Origin: Paenibacillus hexagrammi
GTDB taxonomy: Bacteria; Bacillota; Bacilli; Paenibacillales; NBRC-103111
Assembly: GCF_021513275.1 (NCBI RefSeq)
Contig: NZ_CP090978.1
Location: 5,187,247 to 5,251,246 of the forward strand
DNA length: 64,000 nucleotides
Direction of reading: 5' to 3'
In this document: positions 25 through 15,630 of the stretch, piece by piece
Layout of the letters: every line of letters starts with the position of its first letter
Numbering within the stretch: position 1 is the stretch's first letter
Notes under the pieces: model-generated
Told to the model about the DNA's origin: nothing
Database searches by the model: none
What the model saw: the letters and a program-made list of their open reading frames with translations, nothing else
Program-made: the position numbers and the translations under genes

Positions 25-3000
25 ATGAGCGCAAAATTGTATGACATCACGCTCCATGCCGTCTTGACGGACAGCGGAGATGCACTGCTTTGGGGCTTGC
101 AGGATGGACGGGAAATGTCCGGTCACACGCTACGGAAGCTTCTTTTCGCCTGGCACGAGCCATCCTGCTACGGAACAAAGCTGGAGCTGCAGCAAGCCGG
201 TGATGTATCCGTAACGATCCTTCCTGCCGAGATGGTGCTCCCCTTCTTCGCAGAGCCTGCATTTATGGATATGCTGAGGTGGAAGCATGAGGATGAGCTC
301 GTTATCAAGCTGCTGGAGGCTGCTCCGCTCTTATACAGAGAAGCCCGCGAAGGACGCTTTATTCCCAGCTACAAAGCTTACCGGTCAGGTCAGTTACAAT
401 GGATCTGGGAAGAAAAGCCGGAAGAATCAGGGCTTGAGTTGGAAATGGGATCAGGTTCGGAATCGGGGGCGATTACTGAGGCTAGTGATGGAATATCCTC
501 TGCCGATGACGGTAATGGCCGCCTCGGATTGGATGTAATTGACGAGGATGCAGAGGACACTCTTGTGGAGCCGGGAAACCATGACACGGATAGCATGGTT
601 AGAGCGAGGATACTAAGCGGCCTAGACGAAGAGGTACCGGGACTTCGAGCCGCGTTCTCCGCCGCTGTATGGGGAATCCACTATGCCGATGAGGCTTCCG
701 TATTGGAGCTGCGCCGCAGCTATCCCGCCTTGTTCAGGGGGCGGGAGCTTGCCGAAGGGGCCGCTGCGAGCGCGGAGAACTACACGGAAGAGGAGTGGCT
801 CGTGCGGCTGGGTTGGAAGCCCGACACGGCTCCCTTCCGCCCTGCGCTGCAGCTGATGGAGCCTGATGAGGAAGCGGATGAATGGCGCCTGCGGCTGGTG
901 CTGCAGGACAAGAACGAAGGCGCCATGCTGGTGCCCATCCGCTTAACGGTTGACGGACAGGCCAAGGGCAAATGGCCTGTCCAGTGGGAACCTTACATCC
1001 GGGAGCGTTCGACCGGATGGGCAGCGCGGTTGTCCGCCTCACTCCCCGGCACGGGAGGCGGCGTGCTGTTTGCCGAGCCGCTGAGCGACGAGGCGGCCTG
1101 GCAGTTCTTGACGGCGGGCAGCCGCGAGCTGCTGGATGACGGCTGGAACGTCATGCTGCCCAGCTGGTGGGAAGCCGCGTCGAAGCGCAAGCCGCGGCTT
1201 CGCGCCAAGGTTGCCGCGGGCGCCGGCGGACGCGGCAAATCGCTGTTCGGGCTGAGCGCTCTCGTCGACTTCGACTGGCGCATCGCCATCGGCGGCGCGG
1301 ATCTCAGCGAAGCCGAATTCGCTGAGCTGCTGAGCCGGAAACAGCGGTTTGTCCGTTTTCGCGGCGAATGGGTGTACCTAGACCCGGCGCTGCTCGAGCA
1401 GATTCGCCGGATCATGTCCAGCGTAAGCCCCGAAGAAGGGCTGTCGCTGCAGGATGTTCTTCAGCTTCATCTTTTGAATGAAGCTGACGGACCGCAATCT
1501 GCGAACGGCAGTGGCGATAAGGATGCCATCAATGAGGAAGAAGCAGCAGCCCGTGTTGAGATGGAGGTCGAGCTGAATAAGCATCTGCTTGCGCTTGTAC
1601 GCCAGCTGGGTCAGCCTTCCGAGCTGACGCTGCTGGATGTCCCCGCCGGATTGCAAGCCGAGCTGCGCAGCTACCAACGCGAAGGCTTCACCTGGCTGAG
1701 CTTCCTTCGCAAGTTCGGACTGGGCGCCTGTCTGGCCGATGACATGGGACTCGGCAAAACGATTCAATTCATTACCTATTTGCTGGAGCATCAGCACGAA
1801 TCGGATTCCCCTGCCCTGCTGATCTGCCCTACGTCTGTTCTGGGCAATTGGCAGAGGGAGCTGGCTAGATTTGCTCCCACTTTGAACGTGATGCTTCATT
1901 ACGGCAAGAGCAGATTGAACGGTGAACAACTGGCCGAGCAATTAGCTCATACGGATGTTGTCATTACCTCTTATACAACAGCTTTGCTGGATCAAGAGCT
2001 GCTGCAAGACATTATCTGGAGCTCCCTCTGTCTGGACGAAGCGCAAAACATCAAAAACGCGCAAAATAAGCAATCCGCCGCCGTTCGTTCTCTCCGAGCC
2101 CGGCATCGAATTGCTTTGACGGGTACGCCGATCGAGAACCGATTGTCCGAGCTTTGGTCGATTTACGATTTTTTGAATCCGGGTTACTTGGGGAATTCAA
2201 GCGGATTTCAACACCGGTTCGCTAATCCCATCGAGAAGCATCATGACGAGGAGCGGACGCTGGAGCTGCAAAAGCTCGTTAAGCCCTTCATGCTGCGCCG
2301 TAAGAAGAAGGACCCCGCTATTCAGTTGGACTTGCCAGATAAGCAGGAGATGAAGGTTTATATGAATCTCACGGCTGAGCAGGCGGCCTATTATGAACAG
2401 GCCGTGAAGGATCTTATGGAGCGCATGCAGCGGCTGGAAGGCATGGAGCGGAAGGGAGCGATCCTGGCTGCTTTAACCCAGTTAAAGCAGTTGTGCGACC
2501 ATCCGGTTCTGCTGACGAAGGAGGCGGAGCTGTCCGAGGAAACGCTGCGCTCCGACGAGCTGCGTGAGGGGTTTATCTCCCGCTCCGCAAAGCTGGAGCG
2601 GCTTGTCGCCATGGTAGGAGAGCTTCGGGACGAAGGCGATTCCTGCCTGATCTTTACGCAGTACGTCGGCATGGGCCGCATGCTGGCGGATGTGCTGCAG
2701 GCGCAGCTCGGAGAGCGCGTGCTGTATTTGAACGGGAGCACGCCGAAGCTTGAGCGCGACCGCATGATTGATACGTTCCAGTCTGAGGGCGGACCGGGGA
2801 TCTTTATTTTGTCCTTGAAGGCCGGCGGTGTGGGCCTCAATCTGACGGCGGCGAATCATGTGTTCCACTACGATCGCTGGTGGAACCCGGCGGTCGAGAA
2901 CCAGGCTACAGACCGGGCCTACCGGATGGGGCAGAAACGGAATGTGCAGGTGCATAAATTCATCTCTCTGGGCACTCTGGAGGAGAAGATCGACGAGATG

Positions 3001-3114
3001 CTCGAGAGTAAGATGAGCCTCAGCGAGAACGTGATTTCCACTTCCGAAGGCTGGGTCACGGAGCTTTCGAACGACGAGCTGCGCGAGTTGTTTGCCTTGC
3101 GGCAGAGTTGGTAG
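25..3114 (+). CDS. SNF2-family DNA-dependent ATPase/helicase with a long acidic N-terminal region
   Basis: Walker A 'DMGLGKT'; 'DEAQNIKN' DEAH-like box; helicase C-terminal motifs ('GGVGLNLTAANHVFHYDRWWNP'). 1029-aa ORF. Confidence 0.85.
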   Translation: MSAKLYDITLHAVLTDSGDALLWGLQDGREMSGHTLRKLLFAWHEPSCYGTKLELQQAGDVSVTILPAEMVLPFFAEPAFMDMLRWKHEDELVIKLLEAAPLLYREAREGRFIPSYKAYRSGQLQWIWEEKPEESGLELEMGSGSESGAITEASDGISSADDGNGRLGLDVIDEDAEDTLVEPGNHDTDSMVRARILSGLDEEVPGLRAAFSAAVWGIHYADEASVLELRRSYPALFRGRELAEGAAASAENYTEEEWLVRLGWKPDTAPFRPALQLMEPDEEADEWRLRLVLQDKNEGAMLVPIRLTVDGQAKGKWPVQWEPYIRERSTGWAARLSASLPGTGGGVLFAEPLSDEAAWQFLTAGSRELLDDGWNVMLPSWWEAASKRKPRLRAKVAAGAGGRGKSLFGLSALVDFDWRIAIGGADLSEAEFAELLSRKQRFVRFRGEWVYLDPALLEQIRRIMSSVSPEEGLSLQDVLQLHLLNEADGPQSANGSGDKDAINEEEAAARVEMEVELNKHLLALVRQLGQPSELTLLDVPAGLQAELRSYQREGFTWLSFLRKFGLGACLADDMGLGKTIQFITYLLEHQHESDSPALLICPTSVLGNWQRELARFAPTLNVMLHYGKSRLNGEQLAEQLAHTDVVITSYTTALLDQELLQDIIWSSLCLDEAQNIKNAQNKQSAAVRSLRARHRIALTGTPIENRLSELWSIYDFLNPGYLGNSSGFQHRFANPIEKHHDEERTLELQKLVKPFMLRRKKKDPAIQLDLPDKQEMKVYMNLTAEQAAYYEQAVKDLMERMQRLEGMERKGAILAALTQLKQLCDHPVLLTKEAELSEETLRSDELREGFISRSAKLERLVAMVGELRDEGDSCLIFTQYVGMGRMLADVLQAQLGERVLYLNGSTPKLERDRMIDTFQSEGGPGIFILSLKAGGVGLNLTAANHVFHYDRWWNPAVENQATDRAYRMGQKRNVQVHKFISLGTLEEKIDEMLESKMSLSENVISTSEGWVTELSNDELRELFALRQSW

Positions 3115-3237
3115 GGATGATCGATGGATATATGAGTAGGGTTAGTAAGCCGTGTTCCGCGAGTGATAATTCATAGCGTCAAGTTATAGGGATGGTAAAC
3201 GTTAGGTTATGGCGGTTCGCATCACAGATGATAAACG

Positions 3238-3287
3238 GAGAGCCTCAGGTGGACTATAAGGTCACCTGAGGCTCCTTTTTTTATTTA
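3238..3287 (+). terminator. Rho-independent terminator after the SNF2 helicase gene
   Basis: Perfect inverted repeat gagcctcaggtgg...ccacctgaggctc followed by a T8 run. Confidence 0.7.
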
Positions 3288-3456
3288 TAGAGAAGTTTCC
3301 TAGTCGTCTGTCAACCGTGAGAGCATGTCGAGCATGTTGGATTAGAATAACCCTTCCCTTTGTGAATCTAGCTTCACAGCAACTAAGAAGAAGTTCTTCA
3401 AAGTGAATTGCTCCAGGAGTTCTATGAGTTTCATGAAATTCTCCTTCTCATCTCGG

Positions 3457-4293
3457 CTATTCCTTTTCCAAGCCTTCCGTTAACCAAAGCACATGAGATT
3501 GCGGCTGCGTACTCCCTCTCTCCCATACCAGCTGGAGCGTCTCAAAGCGGCGAATTTCCGGGCACTCGTTTAAGTCTCCAAAATATCGCTTTATGGCAAG
3601 GATTTGGGAGTTGTGAGCGCGTAAGGCGGCAGCTTTGATATTCCACATCGGCCTTGTGTCCAGTTGCGGCCCGATGGGCTGTGCATGTTGACCTGCTGCT
3701 GCGGGTGTGGCAGCTGACGCTGCTTCAGGTGCAGCGGCAGATGCGACGGCAGACGCGGCTTCAGGTACCGCCGCAGGTGCGGGTGCAGCGGTTGGAGTAG
3801 CAGAGGCTGCTATGTAATACAGCCTCTGCACATAAGGGCACCGTCCCGATGTGACGGCCATGGTCGTCAATTTGGATATTGCCATATGATCCCGGTGACC
3901 GTTGCCTCCGTTTTCCGGAAAGGTCACTACGACGGGACATTTATGCAGATTAAGAAAATCTGCAATCCGTTCCACACATTCCGGCTCATTCACGGTATCG
4001 AGCAGACCATCGGGATAGCCCAGGTGCGTAATGGAATGCAAGCCGAGAATCGCGGCGGCCTCTTCCATTTCCCGTACCCGTACTGCAGCCAGTTCTTCCC
4101 TGCTTGCATGAAGGTAGGAGCCGTTCTTATTGCCAGCGTCGCCTTTGGTTGCCAGCAGCAGTAAAGGGTGATTGCCTTCATCGGCTAATTTGCGTATAAA
4201 GGCTGAGCACAAAAATGTCTCATCGTCAGGATGAGCAAAAATAAAAGCTACGGGGTTTGCCATTTTTGTATCCTCCGGGGGAGCCGAATTCAT
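3457..4293 (-). CDS. PIG-L/LmbE-family N-acetylglucosaminyl deacetylase (BshB-like) with an internal Ala/Pro-rich low-complexity insert
   Basis: 'VAFIFAHPDDETF' LmbE signature. Start trimmed to an internal Met (MNSAPPED) to avoid overlap with the downstream CYTH gene; the ORF track gives 3457..4353. The ~40-aa A/P/E-rich segment is encoded by repetitive GC-rich DNA at about 3690-3830. Confidence 0.7.
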   Translation of the reverse strand: MNSAPPEDTKMANPVAFIFAHPDDETFLCSAFIRKLADEGNHPLLLLATKGDAGNKNGSYLHASREELAAVRVREMEEAAAILGLHSITHLGYPDGLLDTVNEPECVERIADFLNLHKCPVVVTFPENGGNGHRDHMAISKLTTMAVTSGRCPYVQRLYYIAASATPTAAPAPAAVPEAASAVASAAAPEAASAATPAAAGQHAQPIGPQLDTRPMWNIKAAALRAHNSQILAIKRYFGDLNECPEIRRFETLQLVWERGSTQPQSHVLWLTEGLEKE

Positions 4294-4298
4294 ATCCG

Positions 4299-4793
4299 CT
4301 AGTTTGATTTCAAATGCCTGTTTGCAACGCTCGGATGTTGAAGTCCAACCCATAGCTGTTTATTTCGATACTCTTCTTCCTTGCCAAGCTCTTTCCCGAA
4401 CCAATTAGGGGCAACAAAGGCTTCAGCATCTTCTACACTTGGAAATTCAACTTCCACGACTCTAAGGTCCAAATGCGGATATTCGTCAATCTGGTACTCC
4501 CTGCCCTGGTGCTGTACGGTTGTACGTATTTTTTCAAGAGGAACTAAGTCCGTATTTGATAAAAGCTGATGATAGATATTCATCGAAATCTCATATTCAA
4601 TTTCCTGCCTTACGAGTCCTTGTCCTGTTTTATACGTATGTGTGCAGCTTGTATGCCCCTGCAGGTTCACGGATTTTCTTACTCGAATTTCCTGATCCTC
4701 CGTAAAGGCCAGGTAAGTTTGAAACAAATGCTCTTTGTCAGTCAGCATAATTTCGCCGGATTCAAGCTGTTGAGATGGAAATGCGGTTAACAA
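4299..4793 (-). CDS. CYTH-domain protein (YjbK-like triphosphate tunnel metalloenzyme)
   Basis: N-terminal 'GEIMLTDKEH' region (the EIE.K-type CYTH start). Size 164 aa; acidic 'EIEYEI' and 'RVVEVEF' strands typical of the CYTH tunnel. Confidence 0.5.
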   Translation of the reverse strand: MLTAFPSQQLESGEIMLTDKEHLFQTYLAFTEDQEIRVRKSVNLQGHTSCTHTYKTGQGLVRQEIEYEISMNIYHQLLSNTDLVPLEKIRTTVQHQGREYQIDEYPHLDLRVVEVEFPSVEDAEAFVAPNWFGKELGKEEEYRNKQLWVGLQHPSVANRHLKSN

Positions 4794-5077
4794 ATATTTT
4801 TTTCAATTTCAATGTTATTCATGGAGACATCCCTTCTTAGAGTTATTCGGTATATATGTTGACAGCAAAATTCATTTTGGCGTTAGCTTGCATGTTTCAT
4901 CATACCTAAAAATACAGCCTTAGGATACCTGACCGAAGAAATTTTCAATCATTCTTTTGCGGATGGCTGATATTGTACCATTTCTTGTTATAAAAGTCGG
5001 TCACACCGCACTGAAGTCAAGCGATACGGTGACTATCTCATTTGGGATATATACAAATCAATTGAAAATGCTACTAT

Positions 5078-5962
5078 TCATTGTGACATTTGATAGTTAT
5101 GTAAATTTTCTTTCGTATGTGAAAGCAGCGAAAAATCGCCCCAACTTTTATGGCCAGGAATAACAATTTGGGCGTCCGGGTATTTATTTATCAGATTTTG
5201 AATGGTAAACGGCCAAGCATCCATGGTGGCTTCATCAATAATCCCAACGTTTTGCTGTTCTAAAGAAAAAATCATATCCCCAAACAATATCTTATATTGA
5301 GGAAACCAAATCGTAATATTGTCCTTCGTATGTGCTTCTCCGGGGTAATAGGCTTCGATGATCGTTTTGCCATACTTCATTAACGGATGATCGTCCAGAG
5401 CAGGATCAGGTACAGGGTACCCTGCCTCTTTAGCCATATGTGCAATCAATGCTGTACTTTCAACGGGGATTTTATGTTTCAATAACGTGCCTATACCACC
5501 GATTCGATCGATTTTATGGTGGGTGATAATCGCTTTTTTTACTCGTTTATGAAAATGATCATGTATTAATGTTAGCAGTTCTTCTGCCAGTTGATCATTC
5601 CATGTCGCATCAATAAGAATAAGCCCTTGCGAAGTATTGACAAGAAGTCCATTTGCTGGAACTTCATTCCCGTTTATGTTCATGGTGGTCGTATGAACCC
5701 AGAGTTCATCGTTTAGTTTTGTTAGTGTGACCGATCCATCAGAGTTGGAAATTTTGGATTCACTCGTTCCCTTGTCGCTATTTACTTGTACTACTGTCGA
5801 ATGGGATGCCTGTGCTCTGTTAAAAATCCCAATACTTATAAGAGCACTTATCATGAATCCTGCACTTAAAAAACGAATTATTGCTCCGAGCGTCATTCCC
5901 TGTAACGGTTTCATCATCATTCTCCTCCATTTCGATGTTGTGAAACATTTTTTTAGCCTCAC
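5078..5962 (-). CDS. Subclass-B1-like metallo-beta-lactamase fold protein (BcII homolog) with a signal peptide/TM and non-canonical metal ligands
   Basis: Strong colinear similarity to Bacillus cereus BcII ('LLVNTSQGLILIDATW', 'YYPGEAHTKDNITIWFPQYKILFG', 'VIPGHKSWGD'). The HxHxD motif reads 'THHKID', and the Cys221-equivalent region reads 'FGDMIF' with no Cys. The true start is probably the internal MMMKPLQG. Confidence 0.7.
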   Translation of the reverse strand: MRLKKCFTTSKWRRMMMKPLQGMTLGAIIRFLSAGFMISALISIGIFNRAQASHSTVVQVNSDKGTSESKISNSDGSVTLTKLNDELWVHTTTMNINGNEVPANGLLVNTSQGLILIDATWNDQLAEELLTLIHDHFHKRVKKAIITHHKIDRIGGIGTLLKHKIPVESTALIAHMAKEAGYPVPDPALDDHPLMKYGKTIIEAYYPGEAHTKDNITIWFPQYKILFGDMIFSLEQQNVGIIDEATMDAWPFTIQNLINKYPDAQIVIPGHKSWGDFSLLSHTKENLHNYQMSQ

Positions 5963-6127: not shown

Positions 6128-6822
6128 CTATTTAAGTTGCAAGTCCAAAAGTCCATATTTCCGCTTATACCGCTCCATAATTCTCATCCAAGCCGGTCCT
6201 AAGAGTGACAAGAAGAACACGTTGCTAAGCGCATGTGCGAGGTCGAAATAAAAGCTGGAAGCATAGGCTGCCAGGAACGAGGCCCATGTGAGGTTTTGCC
6301 CCATGCTGGCCAAAAACCAAATATTCATGATCCATCCGAATACAAATCCCCAGACAAACCCGAAGATGGCTAGTGTGATGCGGCCCCTCAGCCAGCCCCA
6401 ACGGTACAATTGTCCGGCCGTCCAGCCGATCATGCCCCAGCCGAACATTTGCCACGGAGTCCACGGACCTTGACCAAGGAACATGTTCGAGACCAAGGCA
6501 GCGACTGCGCCGACCATAAATCCGGTTTCGGGCCAAAGACGACCGCGCATACGATGATAACAAAGGAGGTCGGCTGCACACTTGGCAATGCGGCAAAGGG
6601 AACGCGTCCTACCGCGGCTATAGCGGCCATCACTGCGATCAGCACGATTTCGCGAGCTTGCAGGGAGCGCTGCTCGAAGCGAAGAAAGAAGGGCACGATG
6701 GAAGCGCAGACCAAGAACAACGATAGTAGTAAATATTGCTCGTCATTCATCCAGGTCATGAACGCTAGCCCGCCTAAGAATAAGAGAAGTACGATGAGGA
6801 AAGAAACTCGTGTTCGAGCCAT
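6128..6822 (-). pseudogene. ECF transporter S (substrate-specific) component, split into two overlapping ORFs by a frameshift near 6540
   Basis: ORFs 6430..6822 and 6128..6550 are both polytopic membrane proteins. They join as ...VVFGP|ETGFMVGA... after a 1-nt insertion in a short C/G run. The locus sits immediately downstream of the ECF A and T genes. Confidence 0.6.
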
Positions 6823-6823
6823 G

Positions 6824-8554
6824 TTAGTTCCACCTCATTAGCTGGTTCATTGCCGTCGTATAGTACAAATTATCGCTAAAAAATAGCTTCGGGTCCTGCG
6901 CTGCCGTCAGCGTGCCATCGAACATCATGGTGCACCTTGTCGCATACTCGGCGGCAAATTCTATATCATGCGTGACCATGACAATTGTTTTGCCGATCCG
7001 CTTTAGCTCACGGAGCCTCTCCCCCCACTGCCGCTTGGCCGCGGGGTCCAGCCCCTTGGTCGGTTCATCCAGCAGCAGCAGGCTGGCTCCGGCAAGCAGA
7101 ATTCCCGCCAATGCGGCAAGCTGTCTCTCACCTTCGCTGAGATCATAGGGATGCTGCTTCAGCAGATGGAGAAGACCGAAGGTCTCCGCAGTTTGTTCCA
7201 AAGTCAGGCTCCCTTGCGAGCCCGCCCTTGCCATTGCTAGACTAAGCTCCTGCTCCACGGTCTCTTCGAGAAAATAGGTCAAAGGATTCTGATGGAGAAA
7301 TCCGACCCGCGCAGCCCGTTCATGGGCCTTCATTTTGCCAAGGTGATTGCCTTCCAATAGCACTTTTCCCTTTTGCGGCTTCATGATTCCCGCCAGGACC
7401 TTGAGAAGGGTGGTTTTGCCGGAACCATTCGCTCCGAGAATAGCTAAGCATTCCCCAGCAGCCACGCTCAGGGAAGCATTCTTCAGAACCGGCGCGATAT
7501 CCTGAGGCGTGTACTGCAGGTACACTTCGCGGCATTCCAAGAGGATAGGCTGGCGGTCGTTGCTGCTCGGTTTACTTGTCGAATCTCCTAGTCGGAACCT
7601 ATTTAATAGACTCATTGAGCTTCGCTCAGTTGTTTGTGGTGATTGAGCAGTCTGGCTTGTCTGGGTGGTCTGGGTGGTCTGGGTGGTCCGAGCAGACTGT
7701 GCGGACTGTGTAGCCTGATATCGCAAGGCTGCAAGCCATGCATGCTTACGACCTTCCTTGACGGTCAAGGGGACTTCCCTACTCACACCCGCTTGCAGAA
7801 ACAACCTTGGTATCGGCGGGACAAAATCTCTAGAATGTCCCACTTCGTTCGACCATAGCGCCTCGGTCACTTCGCGCGGTGTCCCTGAATGCTTCACTGA
7901 GCCGTCTTCCATAAACACCACCCGATCCACGATCGGCAGCAGCTCGTCAAAACGATGCTCAGCGATGATGATGGTGAGTCCAAGGTCTTGATTGATTCGA
8001 TGCAGCAATTGAATCAGTTCTCTGGCTGCGAGAGGATCGAGCTGAGCCGTAGGTTCGTCAAGCAGCAGCAGACGCGGCTGCAGAGCAAGGACAGATGCCA
8101 GCTGCACGAGCTGTTTTTGCCCGCCTGAGAGTTCAAATACTGGCTTGCTCAGCCAAGCATCCAGTCCAAAATAGTGGGACAACTCCGCCACTCTTCGTCT
8201 CATCAGCTCAGATTCAAAGCCGACGTTCTCCATTGTAAAAACAAGCTCGGACAGCACTCGGTCCGTTACCGTCTGATTCTCCGGGCTTTGCTGCACCATG
8301 CCGATGTGTCTAGCCATGAAGCTGTCATCATATGCGGAAAGCGGTTTACCTTCAAAAAGCACTTCCCCGCTACTTGTGCCGACGGGCGAAAGCTCTCTTT
8401 TGATATGCCGTAAAAGCGTTGTCTTGCCGCAGCCGGATGTCCCGCACAAGAGCACAAATTCGCCGGGCTGAACGGTGAGGTTGATTTGATCAAGAATGGT
8501 ACGTTCACTTGCCGGGTAACAGAAGCTTAGTTCTTGAATGTCCAAGATCGCCAT
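6824..8554 (-). CDS. ecfA: ECF transporter ATPase, fused tandem ABC domains (EcfA-EcfA') with a TTQ-repeat linker
   Basis: Two Walker A sites ('GANGSGKTTLLK', 'GTSGCGKTTLLR'), two 'LSGGQ/LSEGE' signatures and two Walker B 'LLLDEPT' sites. Linker 'TTQTTQTTQTSQTAQSPQTT'. Start set at the internal MAILDIQEL to limit overlap with ecfT. Confidence 0.85.
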   Translation of the reverse strand: MAILDIQELSFCYPASERTILDQINLTVQPGEFVLLCGTSGCGKTTLLRHIKRELSPVGTSSGEVLFEGKPLSAYDDSFMARHIGMVQQSPENQTVTDRVLSELVFTMENVGFESELMRRRVAELSHYFGLDAWLSKPVFELSGGQKQLVQLASVLALQPRLLLLDEPTAQLDPLAARELIQLLHRINQDLGLTIIIAEHRFDELLPIVDRVVFMEDGSVKHSGTPREVTEALWSNEVGHSRDFVPPIPRLFLQAGVSREVPLTVKEGRKHAWLAALRYQATQSAQSARTTQTTQTTQTSQTAQSPQTTERSSMSLLNRFRLGDSTSKPSSNDRQPILLECREVYLQYTPQDIAPVLKNASLSVAAGECLAILGANGSGKTTLLKVLAGIMKPQKGKVLLEGNHLGKMKAHERAARVGFLHQNPLTYFLEETVEQELSLAMARAGSQGSLTLEQTAETFGLLHLLKQHPYDLSEGERQLAALAGILLAGASLLLLDEPTKGLDPAAKRQWGERLRELKRIGKTIVMVTHDIEFAAEYATRCTMMFDGTLTAAQDPKLFFSDNLYYTTAMNQLMRWN

Positions 8555-8573
8555 GTCCACACCTCCTTTGCCT

Positions 8574-9413
8574 CTACGATGACCGGCACTGCAGCAAATA
8601 GCGTAAAGCACCCGTATGCCAGCAGTTCCACTCCTGTATGGATACTTCTCCAAGTGACGGGAAGATCTTGTACTCGCCGTAACCTAACATATGAAACACG
8701 ATACTGCTTATAAATAAAACGGAAAGCAGCCCCAGCAGACGAATGTCCCGGGGCATCAGCGCATACGCCTCATACCGGCTGCGCGTTCCCGAGCCATAGC
8801 CTTTTGCTTTCATAGCATCCGCCGTTTGCAGCGCTTCCTCCAGGCTGAGTGTCAGCAGGATTTGCAGCAGCTTCATGCCGTCGGTCATCCGTTTGCGTAA
8901 GCTGCCGTGCGCGATATTAATTCCTTTCATTCGTTGGACCGAAGCGATGTCGGTTAGTCTGCGCTTTAATAGCGGTACAAATCGCATGGACATGACGACG
9001 AGCAGCCCTATTTTCGGAAAATAGGAACCAAAGATATACAAAAACCTCGAAGGCGGCAGCACCGCGTTGAAGGAAATGAACAGCACCAGGATGTTGAGCA
9101 GGTTGACCGTGGAATATCCTCCATATGCAAGGGACTCAAGCGTCACCGGCTGATCCCAAAAATAAAACAAGATATGCCGCCCCCGATGAGAAAACAGCGG
9201 ATTGAGAAGAGCGTACAGCAAACTGATAGGAAGATAGAACTTCAGCATGCTGAGCAGCGCCCTGCTCTCGCGGTTTAACATCGTAAGCAGCACACCGGTC
9301 ATCAGGAGAGTCAGTAGATAGACAGGATGCGTAACGAGCATTCCGAGCAGCATAGCGCCGATGTAGTAGAAAAAGCATACGAACGGATGAAAGGAGCGAA
9401 AGCCGCTTTTCAT
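8574..9413 (-). CDS. ecfT: ECF transporter transmembrane T component (EcfT/CbiQ family)
   Basis: Polytopic membrane protein with CbiQ-like features ('RFVPLL', 'SLEEALQTADAMKAKGY'). Start chosen at MKSGFRSF, adjacent to the upstream stop. Confidence 0.8.
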   Translation of the reverse strand: MKSGFRSFHPFVCFFYYIGAMLLGMLVTHPVYLLTLLMTGVLLTMLNRESRALLSMLKFYLPISLLYALLNPLFSHRGRHILFYFWDQPVTLESLAYGGYSTVNLLNILVLFISFNAVLPPSRFLYIFGSYFPKIGLLVVMSMRFVPLLKRRLTDIASVQRMKGINIAHGSLRKRMTDGMKLLQILLTLSLEEALQTADAMKAKGYGSGTRSRYEAYALMPRDIRLLGLLSVLFISSIVFHMLGYGEYKIFPSLGEVSIQEWNCWHTGALRYLLQCRSS

Positions 9414-10408
9414 GGCATTTTCGCTCCGACGTCTTCGCCCAAATCCAGCGTGTACAGCCATTCGATTTTATCTCCTGGAGCTGCTTTATAGGAACCTGCT
9501 CCTTCGCCCGGAGCCTTTCCGTTCACTTTGTACACCCAACCGCTCTTAGGTCCGCGGTCAAATTCGTACAAATTATCGATGCCTTGGACATAAGCAAATG
9601 TACCCCTGCCTTGGTATTCCATTTGGATTTTATTTGCTTTGGTCACCTGCTTGAGCGCATCCAGCACGGTCATGCCTTCCTGAACAGGTACGGATGTCTC
9701 CTGCAAAATAGAGCCAAGCTTATCATCGCCTGTAATGCTGATACTAATAGCGGTTGTGGCTGGAGAAGGCGCTTGCTGGGAAGACGGCTCTGCCGTTCCT
9801 CCGCCACTTGCAGATGGCTGATTCGCTGAGTCTGCATTGGAGGAGGGCTCGACTGACCCTAGCATTGATGAAGAGGTGCTAGAGGCCGTCTGGGACCCGC
9901 CCGATGCAGATGTATCGGCACTAGACTGCAGAGTGTCTCCTTGTTCAGATGTATTGGCACTAGTAGACCGCTGGGGGGCTCCTTGTGATGATGCATTGGC
10001 ATCGAAGGTTTGTGCTTCTCCTTGCACGGTTGGATTTGCATTGGAAGAGGATTGGGCTCCTCCTTGTAGCGTGGCATTCGTACTTACGGATGCTTGAGCT
10101 GCACTTGTACCTGCGGCAGCCGACTCCGTACCGCCACTAAGCAGGCTCGAGCTGCCTGCTGCAGAGGCAGAGCTGCCCGGTTGACCTCCGTTGGAGGACA
10201 TAGTTGGGTCCGTATCCTGCTGTGCCGATTGATCAGCAGGTTTCGGGCCAGAGTTGTTTGTGCTGCTTACATGGAGACTGCCTGCCTTCGCATCGCTTCC
10301 ATTTGCGGCTGCCAGGTCAGATGAGCCAGCTTCCTGCTTGATGTGTGAACCGCAGCCTGAAGTAACAAGCATGCATGCTACTCCAAGCAGGATATACCAT
10401 TTATTCAT
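9410..10408 (-). CDS. Lipoprotein with S/A/G/T-rich linker and C-terminal DUF4430 (transcobalamin beta-domain-like) domain
   Basis: Lipobox 'LVTSGC'. Long low-complexity linker. C-terminal 'AYVQGIDNLYEFDRGPKSGWVYKVNGKAPGEGAGSYKAAPGDKIEWLYT' matches the DUF4430 pattern. Confidence 0.75.
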   Translation of the reverse strand: MNKWYILLGVACMLVTSGCGSHIKQEAGSSDLAAANGSDAKAGSLHVSSTNNSGPKPADQSAQQDTDPTMSSNGGQPGSSASAAGSSSLLSGGTESAAAGTSAAQASVSTNATLQGGAQSSSNANPTVQGEAQTFDANASSQGAPQRSTSANTSEQGDTLQSSADTSASGGSQTASSTSSSMLGSVEPSSNADSANQPSASGGGTAEPSSQQAPSPATTAISISITGDDKLGSILQETSVPVQEGMTVLDALKQVTKANKIQMEYQGRGTFAYVQGIDNLYEFDRGPKSGWVYKVNGKAPGEGAGSYKAAPGDKIEWLYTLDLGEDVGAKMP

Positions 10409-10491
10409 GATGAATCTCCTATCGTCATTTCTCTCAAAAAGGCAAGAAGGAGCCCCTTACAAGAAAGGGCTCTTCTTATCCTCAGCGATTC

Positions 10492-13400
10492 TTACTTTTT
10501 TGTCAATTCATAAGCTCTAACAGCTACGACAGCAGCCATCTCTCGAGTTGCCGAATCCTGCGGCAGGAATCTGCCGGACTCGTCGCCTTCCATGAGTCCT
10601 TGCTGTTGAACAGTTTGGATGTATGGTGCAGCGCCTTCAAATGCTTGATCTAAATCCGAGAATGAATCGGTCGCAGCATCAGCAGTTTCCAAATGCAGCG
10701 CTCTGGAAAGCATGATCGCCATTTCTTGGCGAGAGATCGCCGCATCCGGCGCGAAGCGGTCGTTGCTTACGCCTGTGGCGATACCCTTAGCTACTGCCTT
10801 CGCCACGTATCCTGCATACCAGGAGTCCGGCGCTACATCAGTAAAGCCAGTATTTACATCGGCAGAAGGAGCTTCACCCAGGATTCTCAGGAGGATCGCA
10901 GCGAATTGAATTCGAGTGATTTGTTTTTTAGGTTCAAAGGATGATTTTTCTCCGCCTGTTCCCTCAATTATATGATAGGCAGCGGCCTTCTTCACGGAAG
11001 GGAGTGCCCACGCTGCTATATCTGTTTGGTCTGCGAACACTGGAGCTGTTTCCGGCTGAGCTGGCTGGCTCACGTGGCTCGTGGACTTCAGGTAATTCTG
11101 GTATGCACCAAGTGCCATCAACGATTGCTCTGTAGCGATAACCTCCGATTGACCGTCCTTCGTATGAGGGAAAGAGCCGTCGCTCAGCTGCAAGCCTAGC
11201 AAGTAGGCCAGCATGCTTTTGTCACCGGAATGGAATTGCGGGTTGTTGACAGGATCAATACCGCTGACAGAAAGGCCCCAGATGACCTGCGCAGTGCTTT
11301 CGGCATTTTCCACACCCTTCAGTGTGAAACCGCCATCGTCGGCTTGCTGCGCGCTAAGCCATTTCACGGCTTTCTCCATGGCCGTTATTACGGTCGACTG
11401 TTCCTTGTAAGGTGTGAGTGCCGCCAACGCTGCTGCGGTCAAATCGGGCTCACCCTTCTCGCCCTTCGCCAGCGGCCAGCTGCCGTCTTGGTTTTGCGCA
11501 TCAAGGATCCATTGCAGCAGCTTTTCTGGTGTCCATTTCGCTTCTGCCGGGAGGTCATAGGAACCTCCGTGTAATGCAAGCAGCCCATAGATCGGGCCAT
11601 TGGTGCCCTGAATTTCCATTTGTTCGTTATTGTAGATGCGTTCGATCAGGTTAAAGCCGCCTATCGACTGAGGATTGCCTCCGGCAGCCTGAACGCTTAA
11701 AGCTAACCGTTCATAATCCGTCACTTTGCGGAATGTACCGTTCTTTTCCTTCAGCATGGCTATCACACTATCTAGATAGTTCGCGCTTACCGGCACACCT
11801 GCTGTATGGAGGGCATACGCCGACCAGTCACTGAGCTCGACTCCGTTCTTCAGCCACTTGGAAGCACGATCGATGGCAGGTCCAACATCTACAGAGGTGC
11901 CAGTTGTTGGCTTTTGCTCCAGTTTGGATCTATTAATAACAGCAAATTTCGTAAAATGGTTGACTAACCCTGTGACTGTTCCAGTCTCCGCATCAATGAC
12001 AGCCGGGATTGGAATCCATTCACCGGTCTCCTCGTTTAGCCAGACTAGCGCCAATTGACTTAAGTCCTCGGCTGCGAGTGGTGTTTTGATCGAGATTTGA
12101 ACGGGCTTGGCGTAGGTCAGACCTTTGGGGCCGAATTCAAAAATGGGTGAAACGAGCTCTTCGCGTTCTTGTGATGAAAGCTTGTTGACGGTAATGATTT
12201 TGCTTTCAGCTAGCGCATTCTCTGGGATTTGCAGCTTCACTTCTGATTTGGCGTCAGTAATTTCAGTTGCCGTCTTCGCTTGTGCTGTCTTTTCCAATGC
12301 AACCGCATTGCCTGCCAATTCTTTCTTGAGCGCTTCCGCAGCGGAAGCGGACATTTTCTTATCCGCATTGACAATCACTGCAGGCTTGGAAATTTGTTGA
12401 ATTGGTTTCTTGTTGTCGTAAGCCAGCTCCAGATTTTTCACTTTATCTGCGACTTCAGAGGTAGATGTTCCTGTTGCTGTAGTCGCTCCACCGCCTACTG
12501 GGGAAGGTGCGTTCAAATCATTGCCACCGTCTTTCGTATAACGCCAAGATACGGAGTCGCCGGACTTCAGTAGTACCGAGTCTGCGCCTGTACTCAAGTA
12601 GCTGCCGTTAACTGCGTACATCCATCCGCTTAGCGGCCCCTCGTCGAATTCTCTTAAACCGTCTATGCCCTGCACATATGCGGTTGAGCCCGAGCCCGAT
12701 GATTGAACACGGTTTGCTCCCAACGTGCGAATCAACAAAGAGTATGGTGTGTCGCCGCTCTGTAAGGCAACCGACCTTGTGGAAAGGATGGTTCCCTTAT
12801 TACTATCACCTGTCACGGAGAGGTAGACGATTGGGCTTCCTCCCGTATTCGTGCCTCCGTCTACTCGGGGCTGAATGGTAATCGGCTGCGACATATGGAC
12901 AATGATCGGAGTGCTGTTCGCCTTGTACCCTGAGATGTCCATATCATACGATCCAGCAGGCAGACCCGCGAATGTAACTGTGCCCTGGCTGTCCGTTACC
13001 GCTGTTAGTCCGCCGACTTTTACTTGGACGCCTTCCGCTGGTGAAGGCGTGTCGAAGCCGGATGTTTTTAGAATATTTACGGTGAAAGATTCGTTCGCTT
13101 TCGGCTGCGAAGGGTTTAGTGTTATGGAATTGACCAGGAAAGTGGTCGAGTTCCAGTCAGTATCAAATCCGCTGAAGTAAACGACCGCTCGTTCACCTGG
13201 GTGAAGCGTATAGTCTGCCATCCCTACCATAGGAATGGTCCATTTGCCTTGGCTGTAGATCGCGTAGCTCCATGCATCGGCATCGGATTCGATGGATTGC
13301 AGATACCCGTTATCTATGTGCTTATGAATCTGATGCTCTACCAGGATGTTTTCGATACTATCCAACAAATTAGGCGAGTTCGCCGCATCCACAGCAAAAG

Positions 13401-15021
13401 TTTGGGATGAACCCTCAATTTGAATCATAGCTGTGCCCACTTCAAAAGACTTGGAAGCAGCAGCGATCTTAGGTGCAGTCCCTGTCTGATAACCTGACAC
13501 TACTGCTTGATAGGTTCCACCGGAAAAACCGGCGGGGAATTGAGCGACACCGTAGGTGTCTGTCTGCACGGTTTGCCCGTTTATCTCCACAGAGACGTTC
13601 TCAGCCTCTTTGATATTTTCTTGATGGTTTTGATAATCATACACGGATTGATAAACCGTTACTGTAACCGCCTCACCTGCAACGGGCAAGGCAGGGTCTA
13701 TCGTGATCGACTGAACGAGTGCTGTACTATACCCTGTGTAGTACAAATACACGTCATCGCCAGCACGCAGTTGGTAATCGTGCATGTTGGTGGCACCAAC
13801 GGTTGCGTAATCCCATGATCCTTGACGCTTAACGTTGTAATACCACCATGTGTTACCGGTTCCACTTATGCCGTTAACGGCATGGAAATAATGACTTCCA
13901 TCTGCATCAAATGATACGCCCGAAGCCTGCAAAACCTGCACAGCCGCATCAAACGCATTACTCGCCGTCACCGCTCCTTCGGCCAAAATACCTGCCGGAC
14001 CTGCGACGTGAACCGTCACACTCGCATCCGAAGATGACCCACCGCCGATGACGGGTACAGATACATACGACCCGCTGTTGCCCCCGGTAAACGCATCATA
14101 ATCCACTAATGCCATTAAAGCCTGACCAGTTGCACCTGTATCCGAAGCACTGCTACTTGTAAGATGGACGAAGCCGCCGTCACTTCTGCGGTAGGTAAAC
14201 AGATAGCTGAGCGGATTTCCGTTAGCTTTGGTAAAGCTGGCGCTGCGCGCGTCTACACCTGCTGCGGAAAGTCCAATAATCACCTGTGCGGTACTCTCGG
14301 AATTTTCCCCGTACTCGGTAAATCCTCCGTTGTCTAATTGCTTCGAAGAGAGCCATTGAACGCCGCCTTCAATCGCTTGCTGGACAACTGGCAAGTCTTT
14401 ATACACGGAAAGGGCTTTAATTGCCGAAGCCGTGATATCGATGCTGCTATCGCCACCTGACGAGAGCGGGAAGCCGCCGTCGGCGTTCTTTTGCGTGAGC
14501 AGCCACGCTGCGATTTTATCCGGTTTCCACTTCGCTGTTAACGGAATATTGTACGCTCCGCTGCTTAAGGCTTGCAGGGCATAAATCGCACCGTTGCTGC
14601 CTTGCGCCGTCAGTACATCGCTGTTATAGATGCTCTGAATCAGATTGTACGTCCCGGTTCCCGTTACAACCTGCTCGGGATTACCGCCTGCAGCCTTCAC
14701 GGCCAGTGCTATCCTTGCGTAATCGGTGACGTTGTTGTATTGGCCGTTTTTTAGTCCGACCTGACTGCTGACCGAGGATAAATACGATGCCGGTACCGAC
14801 TTACCTGCTTTCGCTAGCGCATAGGCATCCCAATCGGTAATGTTGTCTCCGTTCGCTGCTAATAGATAGCCAGCTGCATCCTCTATCGCTTGCGGGACGG
14901 TTACAGTCCCTTGATCTCCTTGATCCGCATACACCGGCACAGCTCCGCTAAAAGCGGAAATGAGCAAACACCAGATCAGCAGGATCATGCTTACTTTTTG
15001 TACGACTTGCTTTCTTTCCAT
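10492..15021 (-). CDS. Giant (1509 aa) secreted S-layer-anchored protein: 2 alpha/alpha-toroid (prenyltransferase/terpene-cyclase-like) domains, 3 DUF4430-like modules, 3 C-terminal SLH domains
   Basis: Signal peptide. Repeated 'Q..DGGF'-type motifs (QKNADGGFPL, KQLDNGGFTEYG, RRSDGGFVHL, QNQDGSWPL, QQADDGGFTL). DUF4430-like segments around 'WWYYNVKRQG', 'WSYAIYSQGKW' and 'LSGWMYAVNGSY'. Three SLH repeats at the C-terminus. Confidence 0.8.
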   Translation of the reverse strand: MERKQVVQKVSMILLIWCLLISAFSGAVPVYADQGDQGTVTVPQAIEDAAGYLLAANGDNITDWDAYALAKAGKSVPASYLSSVSSQVGLKNGQYNNVTDYARIALAVKAAGGNPEQVVTGTGTYNLIQSIYNSDVLTAQGSNGAIYALQALSSGAYNIPLTAKWKPDKIAAWLLTQKNADGGFPLSSGGDSSIDITASAIKALSVYKDLPVVQQAIEGGVQWLSSKQLDNGGFTEYGENSESTAQVIIGLSAAGVDARSASFTKANGNPLSYLFTYRRSDGGFVHLTSSSASDTGATGQALMALVDYDAFTGGNSGSYVSVPVIGGGSSSDASVTVHVAGPAGILAEGAVTASNAFDAAVQVLQASGVSFDADGSHYFHAVNGISGTGNTWWYYNVKRQGSWDYATVGATNMHDYQLRAGDDVYLYYTGYSTALVQSITIDPALPVAGEAVTVTVYQSVYDYQNHQENIKEAENVSVEINGQTVQTDTYGVAQFPAGFSGGTYQAVVSGYQTGTAPKIAAASKSFEVGTAMIQIEGSSQTFAVDAANSPNLLDSIENILVEHQIHKHIDNGYLQSIESDADAWSYAIYSQGKWTIPMVGMADYTLHPGERAVVYFSGFDTDWNSTTFLVNSITLNPSQPKANESFTVNILKTSGFDTPSPAEGVQVKVGGLTAVTDSQGTVTFAGLPAGSYDMDISGYKANSTPIIVHMSQPITIQPRVDGGTNTGGSPIVYLSVTGDSNKGTILSTRSVALQSGDTPYSLLIRTLGANRVQSSGSGSTAYVQGIDGLREFDEGPLSGWMYAVNGSYLSTGADSVLLKSGDSVSWRYTKDGGNDLNAPSPVGGGATTATGTSTSEVADKVKNLELAYDNKKPIQQISKPAVIVNADKKMSASAAEALKKELAGNAVALEKTAQAKTATEITDAKSEVKLQIPENALAESKIITVNKLSSQEREELVSPIFEFGPKGLTYAKPVQISIKTPLAAEDLSQLALVWLNEETGEWIPIPAVIDAETGTVTGLVNHFTKFAVINRSKLEQKPTTGTSVDVGPAIDRASKWLKNGVELSDWSAYALHTAGVPVSANYLDSVIAMLKEKNGTFRKVTDYERLALSVQAAGGNPQSIGGFNLIERIYNNEQMEIQGTNGPIYGLLALHGGSYDLPAEAKWTPEKLLQWILDAQNQDGSWPLAKGEKGEPDLTAAALAALTPYKEQSTVITAMEKAVKWLSAQQADDGGFTLKGVENAESTAQVIWGLSVSGIDPVNNPQFHSGDKSMLAYLLGLQLSDGSFPHTKDGQSEVIATEQSLMALGAYQNYLKSTSHVSQPAQPETAPVFADQTDIAAWALPSVKKAAAYHIIEGTGGEKSSFEPKKQITRIQFAAILLRILGEAPSADVNTGFTDVAPDSWYAGYVAKAVAKGIATGVSNDRFAPDAAISRQEMAIMLSRALHLETADAATDSFSDLDQAFEGAAPYIQTVQQQGLMEGDESGRFLPQDSATREMAAVVAVRAYELTKK

Positions 15022-15048
15022 CCGTTGTTTCGTCCTCTCTCCGTGAAA

Positions 15049-15082
15049 TAAAAAAGCACCCCAACATGAAGAAGGGCTGCTG
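15049..15082 (-). terminator. Riboswitch expression-platform terminator (intrinsic)
   Basis: Minus-strand hairpin GCAGCCC...GGGGUGC followed by U6, located between the riboswitch aptamer and the start codon at 15021. Confidence 0.55.
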
Positions 15083-15189
15083 ATTACGCTTTACGCATAG
15101 ATTAGCTGGCCAGATAGATGTACAAAAGGAAGTACACTCATGCAGCCGTTTCCCCCTCTCCTATTCCCGCGTAGGCGATGGTACTGACA

Positions 15190-15350
15190 TTCAACAGATA
15201 TCCTGACTTGCGGATCGTAGCTAATCTCCCGTCTTCCCATCCTTCTTAAAAAGGATAGTGACATCTTGAAAGCAGCTCCCCGCTTACAGTGGCGCGACCG
15301 TGCCGGATTCTCACCGGACTTCCCTGTTTGGTTACCGAATGCGGACTGAA
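15190..15350 (-). promoter_or_regulatory. Cobalamin (B12) riboswitch aptamer
   Basis: The minus strand reads '...GGGAAGUCCGGUGAGAAUCCGGCACGGUCGCGCCACUGUAAGCGGGGAG...AAGUCAGGAUAUCUG'. The conserved GGUG/AAUCCGG core, the GCCACUG motif and a B12-box-like AAGUCAGGA all occur in canonical order. Confidence 0.8.
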
Positions 15351-15386
15351 AGGCCTTAGCATACGGTTCACTTTTAATCACTAAAA

Positions 15387-15416
15387 AGAATACCATGCGC
15401 TTGGATTGGCGTCCAA
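15387..15416 (-). promoter_or_regulatory. Candidate sigma-A promoter driving the riboswitch and surface-protein operon
   Basis: Minus strand TTGGAC-(18 nt)-TATTCT, just upstream of the aptamer. Confidence 0.3.
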
Positions 15417-15630
15417 GGTTTTTTCGTGAATTTTTGACAAAAATCGAGAGGATTTTCAAATGACCGAGCACTCAGAAGATTCAACAGGACACTTTCAATG
15501 AAATTGATGCACATGCAAAAAGGAGCTAGCCCTGGTTTAGGTGGGCAGCTCTTTGGTTTTGTTATCCTGCGTTACTTCGCTGATTTTACACAGAGTTGCA
15601 GAACTAGCACTTTGATCTCGCCTCTAGTAG

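Follow-up and report, generated by a model that had tools for sequence, protein, structure and literature searches.

Surface proteins that combine an alpha/alpha toroid with a beta-grasp domain were placed by Burroughs, Balaji, Iyer and Aravind in a transcobalamin-like clade of the SLBB beta-grasp superfamily (Burroughs et al. 2007, PMC1796856). Members of this clade were described as carrying signal peptides, a toroid fused on either side and extra Ig-type domains, with a second paralogous SLBB protein encoded in the operon and linkage to CbiO-like and CbiQ-like genes, and they were predicted to scavenge B12 or its precursors (Burroughs et al. 2007, PMC1796856). The locus considered here lies in a 64,000-nucleotide (64 kb) stretch of DNA from Paenibacillus hexagrammi, referred to below as the window. 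It consists of a cobalamin riboswitch followed by genes for a giant surface protein of 1509 residues, a DUF4430 lipoprotein and an energy-coupling factor (ECF) transporter, and it fits the 2007 description point by point. However, anchoring through the S-layer or S-layer homology (SLH) repeats has 0 occurrences in the 2007 text, which also predates the description of the MAIN domain, and the P. hexagrammi protein is multi-module, with two toroids and three DUF4430 domains. Altogether, the operon is probably a cobalamin-riboswitch-repressed system for corrinoid capture and import of the CbrT type, with a dedicated (group I) ECF module.

On the transporter side, ECF-CbrT was predicted to be a cobalamin transporter by Rodionov et al. 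in 2009, as reported by Santos et al. (2018, PMC5997447), and transport of cobalamin and cobinamide has been proven for ECF-CbrT of Lactobacillus delbrueckii (6FNP; Santos et al. 2018, PMC5997447). The P. hexagrammi locus shares with it a homologous S component and an energising module of the ECF type. Whereas CbrT of L. delbrueckii depends on a shared general ECF module (group II) and lies in an nrdJ-cbrS-cbrT-pduO cluster (PMC5997447), the P. hexagrammi locus encodes a dedicated ECF module in which the ATPases are fused, together with two extracellular DUF4430 proteins. Riboswitches and lipoproteins each have 0 mentions in that study (Santos et al. 2018, PMC5997447). Genetic data were found for just one homologous cluster, Lsa1836-1840 of L. 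sakei, whose five genes encode an S component, a fused A-A' ATPase, a T component and transcobalamin beta-like and alpha-like proteins. Its deletion impaired heme uptake and accumulation, and complementation restored them (Verplaetse et al., bioRxiv 10.1101/864751). This cluster differs from the present locus in that two small proteins carry the toroid and the beta domain separately, that its description makes no mention of a riboswitch and that the phenotype concerns heme.

Other surface capture systems resemble the locus in mechanism only. In Bacteroides, the lipoproteins BtuG and BtuH, which are regulated by B12 and exposed at the surface, capture corrinoids with high affinity and pass them on to the transporter BtuB. 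BtuG, however, is a beta-propeller of unrelated fold and serves outer-membrane TonB-dependent transport in a diderm cell. General Pfam and NCBIfam scans, which were not aimed at BtuG homology, returned no BtuG-related family. The Isd/NEAT heme relays, some of them SLH-anchored, likewise pass a tetrapyrrole from wall receptors to a membrane lipoprotein and an ABC importer, but with another binding domain and ligand, and the relay in P. hexagrammi is a predicted one.

The system is therefore not new as a concept: it is a member of a known predicted system, annotated as transcobalamin-like in databases and occurring in hundreds of species. The form seen here, with SLH anchor, several modules and a MAIN-type domain, elaborates on that architecture and already stands in the tables of a 2026 preprint (Brogan and Rudner 2026, bioRxiv 10.64898/2026.05.12.724683). 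The initial annotation of this DNA regarded the arrangement as uncharacterised. That view does not hold for the architecture, predicted in 2007, nor for ECF-CbrT, predicted in 2009 and shown to transport in 2018, but it does hold for the biochemistry of the extracellular proteins: full-text literature searches with DUF4430, transcobalamin-like, CbrT and related terms found no paper demonstrating corrinoid binding by a bacterial member.

The riboswitch leader and the importer genes

A B12 riboswitch with a terminator platform had been proposed directly 5' of the giant-protein gene, along with a check against the Rfam covariance model, and both elements are recovered. The aptamer scores 94.6 bits against RF00174 in cmscan (gathering score 31.5; E 2.9e-22), covers model positions 1-189 of 189 and is the sole Rfam match across the whole window. 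Downstream of it, a terminator-like hairpin at about 15081-15055, with arms AGCAGCCC and GGGGUGCU, runs into a U6 tract at 15055-15050 that ends 29 nucleotides 5' of the ATG at 15021. RNAfold indicates that the purine-rich segment GGAGAGGGGG (15165-15153) is able to pair alternatively with the 5' half of the terminator stem. Such a terminator/anti-terminator arrangement is the usual layout, and the hairpin would act as a transcription terminator. As the whole leader folds no better than shuffled controls (z = -0.6), it is the local hairpin that carries the argument for the platform.

Five co-directional genes follow on the minus strand with no significant gaps and are closed by a strong terminator. 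The co-directional gene set originally listed is thus complete on this strand, except that the gene for the S component is split by a 1-nucleotide frameshift, which is discussed below. Judging from the translations, ecfT probably starts at ATG 9413, overlapping the lipoprotein stop codon as ATGA, and the double ATPase probably starts with MAILDIQ at 8554. The latter scores 327.9 bits against TIGR04520, above the curated cut-off of 315, and 319.1 bits against TIGR04521, just under the curated cut-off of 330. A T component and two ATPase domains are encoded beside the S component in adjacent or overlapping genes, which is the dedicated (group I) ECF layout. After repair of the frameshift, the S component matches chain A of 6FNP (CbrT) over residues 54-224 with E 4.7e-14, its only significant relative of solved structure, and ECF-ribofla_trS/ECF_trnsprt is the precomputed Pfam assignment of nearly all S-component homologues listed. 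By its sequence, this protein is a homologue of CbrT, the proven B12/cobinamide S component.

A weak hairpin with a T-rich tail is also seen at 10442-10469 (minus strand), inside the 83-nucleotide gap between the giant-protein and lipoprotein genes. It might attenuate read-through and so give the two genes different expression levels.

A transcobalamin-like module on a wall-anchored protein

The 1509-residue protein is 100% identical to a P. hexagrammi 'S-layer homology domain-containing protein', and orthologues at 61-66% identity occur in P. validus, P. mucilaginosus and others. Pfam recognises three SLH repeats, DUF4430 and a Prenyltrans/SQHop toroid, and the full domain order (Table 1) was obtained from Pfam together with hidden Markov models (HMMs) built iteratively from related loci. 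In hmmsearch, the first DUF4430-like domain (D1) matches the locus-derived DUF4430 HMM with an independent E-value (iE) of 2.7e-13, and the two Ig-like spacers reach 7.9e-31 and 5e-26 with their own locus-derived HMMs. The second toroid (TOR-C) is 46% identical to the first (TOR-N; E 2e-73). By Pfam and these HMMs, TOR-N spans residues 40-320, D1 354-429, TOR-C 1044-1315 and the SLH repeats 1335-1505. The SLH region matches the SLH domain of Bacillus anthracis Sap in the PDB at E 3.3e-9, or 1.4e-20 with a profile. A signal peptide and three tandem SLH repeats mark an SLH-anchored wall protein. Its naming as an S-layer protein is upheld as regards anchoring to the wall through the three repeats, and this does not extend to a role as the S-layer lattice protein itself.

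The N-terminal module, TOR-N followed by D1, was modelled with AlphaFold2 as residues 30-445 of the giant protein (pLDDT 88.2, pTM 0.71). In a Foldseek comparison with the PDB, the best 11 matches of this model are human, rat and bovine transcobalamin and human haptocorrin. The alignments extend over about 440-450 columns and so include both domains (E 1.7e-8 to 3.6e-7, probability 1.00), whereas terpene cyclases and prenyltransferases rank after transcobalamin and are covered over the toroid alone (about 260-370 columns). The model shows a transcobalamin-like two-domain fold, with an alpha/alpha toroid and then a beta domain. This is the order found in animal transcobalamin, haptocorrin and intrinsic factor, in which the toroid is followed by a beta-grasp DUF4430 domain; the bacterial protein, however, shares only 13-15% identity with them and is wall-anchored, multi-modular and five times larger. 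By analogy with transcobalamin, corrinoids would be bound between toroid and DUF4430 domains. A second AlphaFold2 model, covering the third DUF4430 domain (D3), the MAIN-like domain and TOR-C, has good individual domains and a pTM of 0.53.

DUF4430 belongs to the beta-grasp DUF4430/SLBB type that marks the transcobalamin clade, and PF14478 is matched in both the giant protein (E 2e-19) and the lipoprotein (E 1.2e-19). The likening of DUF4430 to the beta domain of transcobalamin proved sound, given that vertebrate transcobalamins carry DUF4430 C-terminally and that transcobalamin and haptocorrin are the best structural matches of the N-terminal module. When a profile of the small DUF4430 domains was searched against solved structures, none matched at E<=1. 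In the 332-residue lipoprotein, a lipobox-like VTSGC precedes a low-complexity linker (~215 residues, mostly S, A, G and Q enriched), and the C-terminal DUF4430 domain (residues 240-323) is the sole folded part, held on a long flexible tether. A lipobox-like motif is present in 57 of the 79 small single-DUF4430 proteins of the loci surveyed, nearly all 79 of which come from related clusters, and relatives of the lipoprotein are labelled 'Transcobalamin-like C-terminal domain-containing protein' in UniRef. Exact-sequence look-ups gave no record for the lipoprotein, the giant protein or the P. durus orthologue; only the Aneurinibacillus orthologue led to a locus.

Conservation across Bacillota

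A profile of the S component, searched against one genome per species, found at least 600 stretches, of which 598 were confirmed. Eighty loci were taken, spanning Paenibacillus, Bacillus, Neobacillus, Sporosarcina, Cohnella, clostridia, relatives of Desulfotomaculum and lactobacilli. Cluster content was determined by calling open reading frames (ORFs) and by iterated HMM searches, with counts made on the 70 loci that have complete upstream DNA. A cobalamin riboswitch lies directly upstream in 55 of these 70 Bacillota loci, and DUF4430 is present in 67, a toroid domain in 59 and SLH repeats in 28. When riboswitch calls made with nhmmer were re-tested with Rfam, 14 of 14 scored above the gathering score, the weakest included. 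The recurrent order is riboswitch, large secreted toroid and DUF4430 protein, small DUF4430 protein, T component, fused A-A' and S component; the large proteins often include Ig-like, MAIN-like and SLH parts. Aneurinibacillus thermoaerophilus has the same five-gene order. Synteny, which had been suggested for checking in other Paenibacillus genomes, therefore extends beyond that genus to dozens of Bacillota species. This conserved linkage, together with the riboswitch, the CbrT homology and the transcobalamin-like module, favours the candidate surface system for B12 capture and uptake put forward in the initial annotation.

The wider interest lies in the family rather than in the P. hexagrammi locus itself, which is one more example, perhaps defective in its S component. 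Found in at least 600 stretches of a species-level collection that takes in soil Paenibacillus, the Bacillus cereus group, clostridia and lactobacilli, the cluster is an obvious candidate for extracellular corrinoid capture in Gram-positive bacteria without BtuFCD-type systems, and animal transcobalamin is proposed to have come from it. If toroid and DUF4430 domains do bind corrinoids and hand them over to CbrT, the cluster would be a Gram-positive counterpart of Bacteroides BtuG and a source of new high-affinity B12 binders, and the question of B12 versus heme raised by L. sakei would be settled.

Some homologous clusters carry additional riboswitches. Tandem cobalamin aptamers precede the cluster in a Christensenellaceae metagenome-assembled genome (L065, 2388-2847), where both copies pass Rfam, and in Desulfotomaculum copahuensis (L057, 2440-2961), where the copies were detected by nhmmer only. 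In locus L054, an extra cobalamin riboswitch drives a divergent DUF4430-DUF4430-SLH protein (2635-5161, minus strand), and in Neomoorella stamsii (L055) a second one lies downstream of the S component (11400-11612, plus strand).

Evidence weighed against corrinoid capture

Several observations weigh against corrinoid capture and import as the function of this operon. The corrinoid role of the extracellular components is predicted from sequence and models. No other B12-dependent or B12-biosynthetic gene is present elsewhere in the window. In the superposition of the N-terminal module on transcobalamin, the TM-score is 0.43-0.49 and the root-mean-square deviation about 10.5-12 Å; a low TM-score with a high deviation means that both domains match but that the modelled inter-domain pose does not. 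The giant protein has no match to PF01122 (Cobalamin_bind) at E<=0.01, and no transcobalamin, intrinsic factor or haptocorrin chain is among its PDB sequence matches, whether searched as a single sequence or as a full-length profile. Membership in the animal transcobalamin family at the level of sequence was considered and is rejected because no transcobalamin chain appears in the profile and PDB sequence searches; the full-length profile found SLH and terpene-cyclase-like chains instead.

By sequence, the toroids resemble terpene-cyclase-like proteins in both Pfam and the PDB, with matches to the prenyltransferase, squalene-hopene cyclase and drimenyl-diphosphate-synthase families. It could be argued from this that the giant protein is an extracellular terpenoid cyclase or prenyltransferase-like enzyme, or else a general adhesin, co-transcribed with a transporter by accident. 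The catalytic acid motif of class II terpene cyclases is DxDD, but the corresponding region reads SIDIT in TOR-N (GGDSSIDITA) and EPDLT in TOR-C (GEPDLTAA). Moreover, DUF4430 domains and ECF genes invariably accompany the toroid, and a structural comparison that takes in both domains ranks B12 carriers, not enzymes, as the best matches. Because the DxDD motif is missing and the DUF4430/ECF context is constant, the enzyme and adhesin readings are rejected as extremely improbable.

On the substrate, the main rival is heme. About one-fifth of the related clusters, mostly from the B. cereus group and lactobacilli, are without a riboswitch, so B12 may not be the specific substrate throughout the family. 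These clusters, and the effect of deletion and complementation on heme accumulation in the layout-homologous L. sakei cluster, would fit a system that imports heme or another tetrapyrrole instead of corrinoids, with transcobalamin-like proteins that scavenge heme as proposed for L. sakei. In P. hexagrammi, however, the cobalamin riboswitch directly precedes the locus, as it does in the majority counted above, which ties expression to corrinoid status, and CbrT, of which the S component is a homologue, is proven to bind B12 and cobinamide. Nor did a scan for operators resembling the Fur box give more than noise (4-5 mismatches) upstream of the clusters that lack a riboswitch. Heme import by the P. 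hexagrammi operon is accordingly held to be very unlikely.

The riboswitch-less clusters have features of their own. In the B. cereus group (L019, about 4800-4995, with L026, L030, L031, L033 and L053 aligned to it) they share a conserved leader of ~190 nucleotides that contains a GCCGCG...GCGGG hairpin and, just before the ribosome-binding site, a GCCCTTGAAGGGC+T7 terminator. A permissive Rfam scan gave no match for this leader even at E<=1, and it could represent a new kind of regulatory leader or work as an attenuator through a leader peptide. In lactobacilli (L035, L075 and L076), toroid and DUF4430 each have a small gene of their own, on one side or the other of the ECF genes, with no riboswitch, which is the layout of the L. 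sakei cluster reported for heme import. A subfamily specific for another substrate may exist within the family.

A further difficulty is that cbrT, the S-component gene, is frameshifted in this sequence. It consists of two overlapping ORFs, 6430-6822 and 6128-6550, with a 1-nucleotide deletion near 6527. The junction reads ...GTC TTT GGC CCG AAA CCG G..., and insertion of one base, giving VVFGPETGFMVG, yields an S component of 231 residues that aligns end to end with 231-residue homologues at up to 80% identity. The gene is either a pseudogene or the product of an assembly indel error, and the importer would be inactive in this strain if the lesion is real. A decaying remnant, in which cbrT is a true pseudogene and surface proteins are made with no import by this route, is the main rival as regards the state of the locus. 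In its favour are the deletion itself, which splits cbrT right before the invariant residues E99 and G101, and other broken-looking genes in the window. These are two RtcB fragments at 33096-33964 (minus strand; profile positions 6-97 and 278-424) and a histidine kinase at 59647-61475 (minus strand), whose dCache part and HAMP-HisKA-HATPase part fall in two ORFs with a 4-nucleotide overlap. Such split genes may be pseudogenes or signs of an indel-prone assembly, and they bear in this way on the reading of the cbrT frameshift; several of them within 64 kb are equally compatible with the second explanation. In addition, the deletion falls within GGCCCGAAACC, a short run of C and G of the kind where consensus indel errors typically occur, both halves of cbrT are still 80% identical to intact homologues and have no second lesion, and the remaining four operon genes are intact. 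Decay of the locus is thus doubtful, though quite possible, and it is compatible with, not exclusive of, assignment to a corrinoid family.

A candidate autoproteolysis domain

Between its ectodomains and its C-terminal part, the giant protein contains a beta-sandwich that resembles the ZU5 domain of ankyrin in Foldseek (TMt 0.61-0.67). MAIN (microbial GAIN) domains are reported to self-cleave between F and S of HFS, with the fragments staying associated. They separate the ectodomains from an anchor of SLH or sortase type, and a role in permitting release of surface proteins is proposed for them (Brogan and Rudner 2026, bioRxiv 10.64898/2026.05.12.724683). In the supplementary tables of that study, DUF4430 has 236 entries as a MAIN partner and Prenyltrans 220, and 'Prenyltrans DUF4430 ZU5 Prenyltrans SLH' is already tabulated, with ZU5 as the DPAM label for the MAIN position (bioRxiv 10.64898/2026.05.12.724683). 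The P. hexagrammi protein agrees with these proteins in having a beta-sandwich between ectodomains and SLH anchor and an H-x-S/T motif in a beta-turn before the last strand. It differs in reading HFT rather than HFS and in having a toroid between the MAIN-like domain and the SLH repeats, so that the order is ectodomains, MAIN-like domain, TOR-C and SLH. In the model, HFT occupies the turn that joins the final two strands (E271-278 and E281-286), and it is invariant in 28 homologues, and HF[ST] or HLS is found in 16 of 17 related domains from the surveyed loci. These features suggest that HFT is a candidate autoproteolysis site and that the presumed B12-binding ectodomain may be nicked and releasable.

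Three SLH-anchored proteins encoded in the window share a ZU5/MAIN-like beta-sandwich that ends in HFT or HFS just before the anchor. Besides the giant protein, they are an S8 subtilase (42195-45407, minus strand), with HFS at residue 859, and a 1721-residue protein (45592-50757, minus strand), with HFS at residue 1513 and no other Pfam match. Three such proteins in a single window suggest that this organism commonly makes surface proteins that nick themselves and can be released.

Proposed mechanism

The proposed route from capture to import follows from the features above, and each individual step is less certain than the assignment of the operon as a whole. At low intracellular corrinoid, the riboswitch would permit transcription to read through. 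The giant protein would be exported, pinned by its SLH repeats to the secondary cell-wall polymer, and would take up corrinoids between toroid and DUF4430 domains in the manner of transcobalamin. The tethered DUF4430 lipoprotein could then shuttle the ligand across the wall as far as CbrT, for uptake driven by the ECF module. The MAIN-like domain probably nicks the giant protein between F and T of HFT, leaving an ectodomain that would be held non-covalently and could be shed.

It could instead be that the surface proteins mainly sequester or hoard corrinoids, for competition, storage or sensing, and do not relay them to a transporter. Multivalent high-affinity surface binders could starve competitors, as discussed for BtuG-type binders of Bacteroides, and the transfer step is a predicted one throughout the family. 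However, the genes for the transcobalamin-like protein, the DUF4430 lipoprotein and the ECF module are almost invariably found in one transcription unit, and the lipoprotein consists of a long tether and a single binding domain. Linkage and tether together make delivery to a membrane transporter the simplest explanation, and hoarding without relay is judged unlikely.

A more far-reaching version of the capture-and-import reading can be proposed, in which the giant protein is a self-nicked, SLH-docked, multivalent 'cobalophore' whose transcobalamin-like ectodomain captures corrinoids at the cell surface or farther out, could be shed and re-docked, and relays its ligand across the thick wall through the lipoprotein to ECF-CbrT, and in which the protein is of the type ancestral to animal transcobalamin. 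This version is tentative and, taken as a whole, rather doubtful. If true, Gram-positive bacteria would have a relay for corrinoids comparable to that of Isd for heme, and the bacterial ancestor of animal transcobalamin would have a living representative.

Feature coordinates and neighbouring genes

Table 1. Features of the corrinoid locus of P. hexagrammi, in window coordinates, with residue (aa) ranges in the giant protein.
Feature	Position	Strand	Basis
Promoter-like site (TTGAAA, 18 nt, AAAAAT)	15430-15459	minus	consensus scan 9/12; low confidence
Cobalamin riboswitch aptamer RF00174, full length	15176-15365	minus	Rfam cmscan
Expression platform	15050-15165	minus	sequence and RNAfold of 15010-15200 and 15040-15100
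Giant-protein gene, 1509 aa	10492-15021	minus	ORF, start ATG 15021
Signal peptide (predicted)	N-terminal, hydrophobic, ending VYA before D		translation; cleavage site inferred
N-terminal transcobalamin-like module	13687-14919	minus	TOR-N aa about 35-325 and DUF4430-like D1 aa about 335-445
Ig-like spacer	aa 442-528		locus-derived HMM
D2, Ig-like spacer and D3 region	12532-13389	minus	locus-derived HMMs (hmmsearch)
D2, divergent DUF4430	aa 552-617		locus-derived HMM, iE 3.9e-6
Second Ig-like spacer	aa 636-716		locus-derived HMM
D3, DUF4430	aa 751-831		locus-derived HMM, iE 1.7e-30; Pfam PF14478 aa 757-830, E 2e-19
ZU5-like / MAIN-type beta-sandwich	11923-12408, aa 872-1033	minus	Foldseek; HFT motif aa 1022-1024
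TOR-C, second alpha/alpha toroid	11047-11904, aa about 1040-1325	minus	HMM, 333 bits
Three SLH repeats, cell-wall anchor	10495-11013, aa 1337-1509	minus	Pfam SLH, E 3.5e-28
DUF4430 lipoprotein gene, 332 aa	9410-10408	minus	ORF and Pfam
ecfT / cbrV-type T component	8574-9413 (ORF to 9461)	minus	Pfam CbiQ, E 4.4e-8
Fused ecfA-ecfA' / cbrU-type double ATPase	6824-8554 (ORF to 8653)	minus	two ABC_tran domains
CbrT-type ECF S component, interrupted	6128-6822	minus	two overlapping ORFs; matches of repaired protein
Intrinsic terminator closing the operon	6120-6087	minus	15-bp stem with 8 G-C pairs, then T run

The promoter-like site in Table 1 is listed as a candidate because such sites are no commoner in this region than in shuffled sequence. 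A promoter read by hand, TTGGAC, 18 nucleotides, TATTCT (15416-15387), matches the consensus at just 7 of 12 positions, and the scan candidate, weak as it is, was preferred to it.

The window also holds neighbouring genes unrelated to B12. On the minus strand these are a 1267-residue ORF without a Pfam match (26766-30569) and a gene for a 1628-residue DUF5724/DUF4132/DUF7737 protein (36597-41483), and on the plus strand genes for an SNF2 helicase with DUF3670 (25-3114) and for two WYL-domain proteins (34859-36326).

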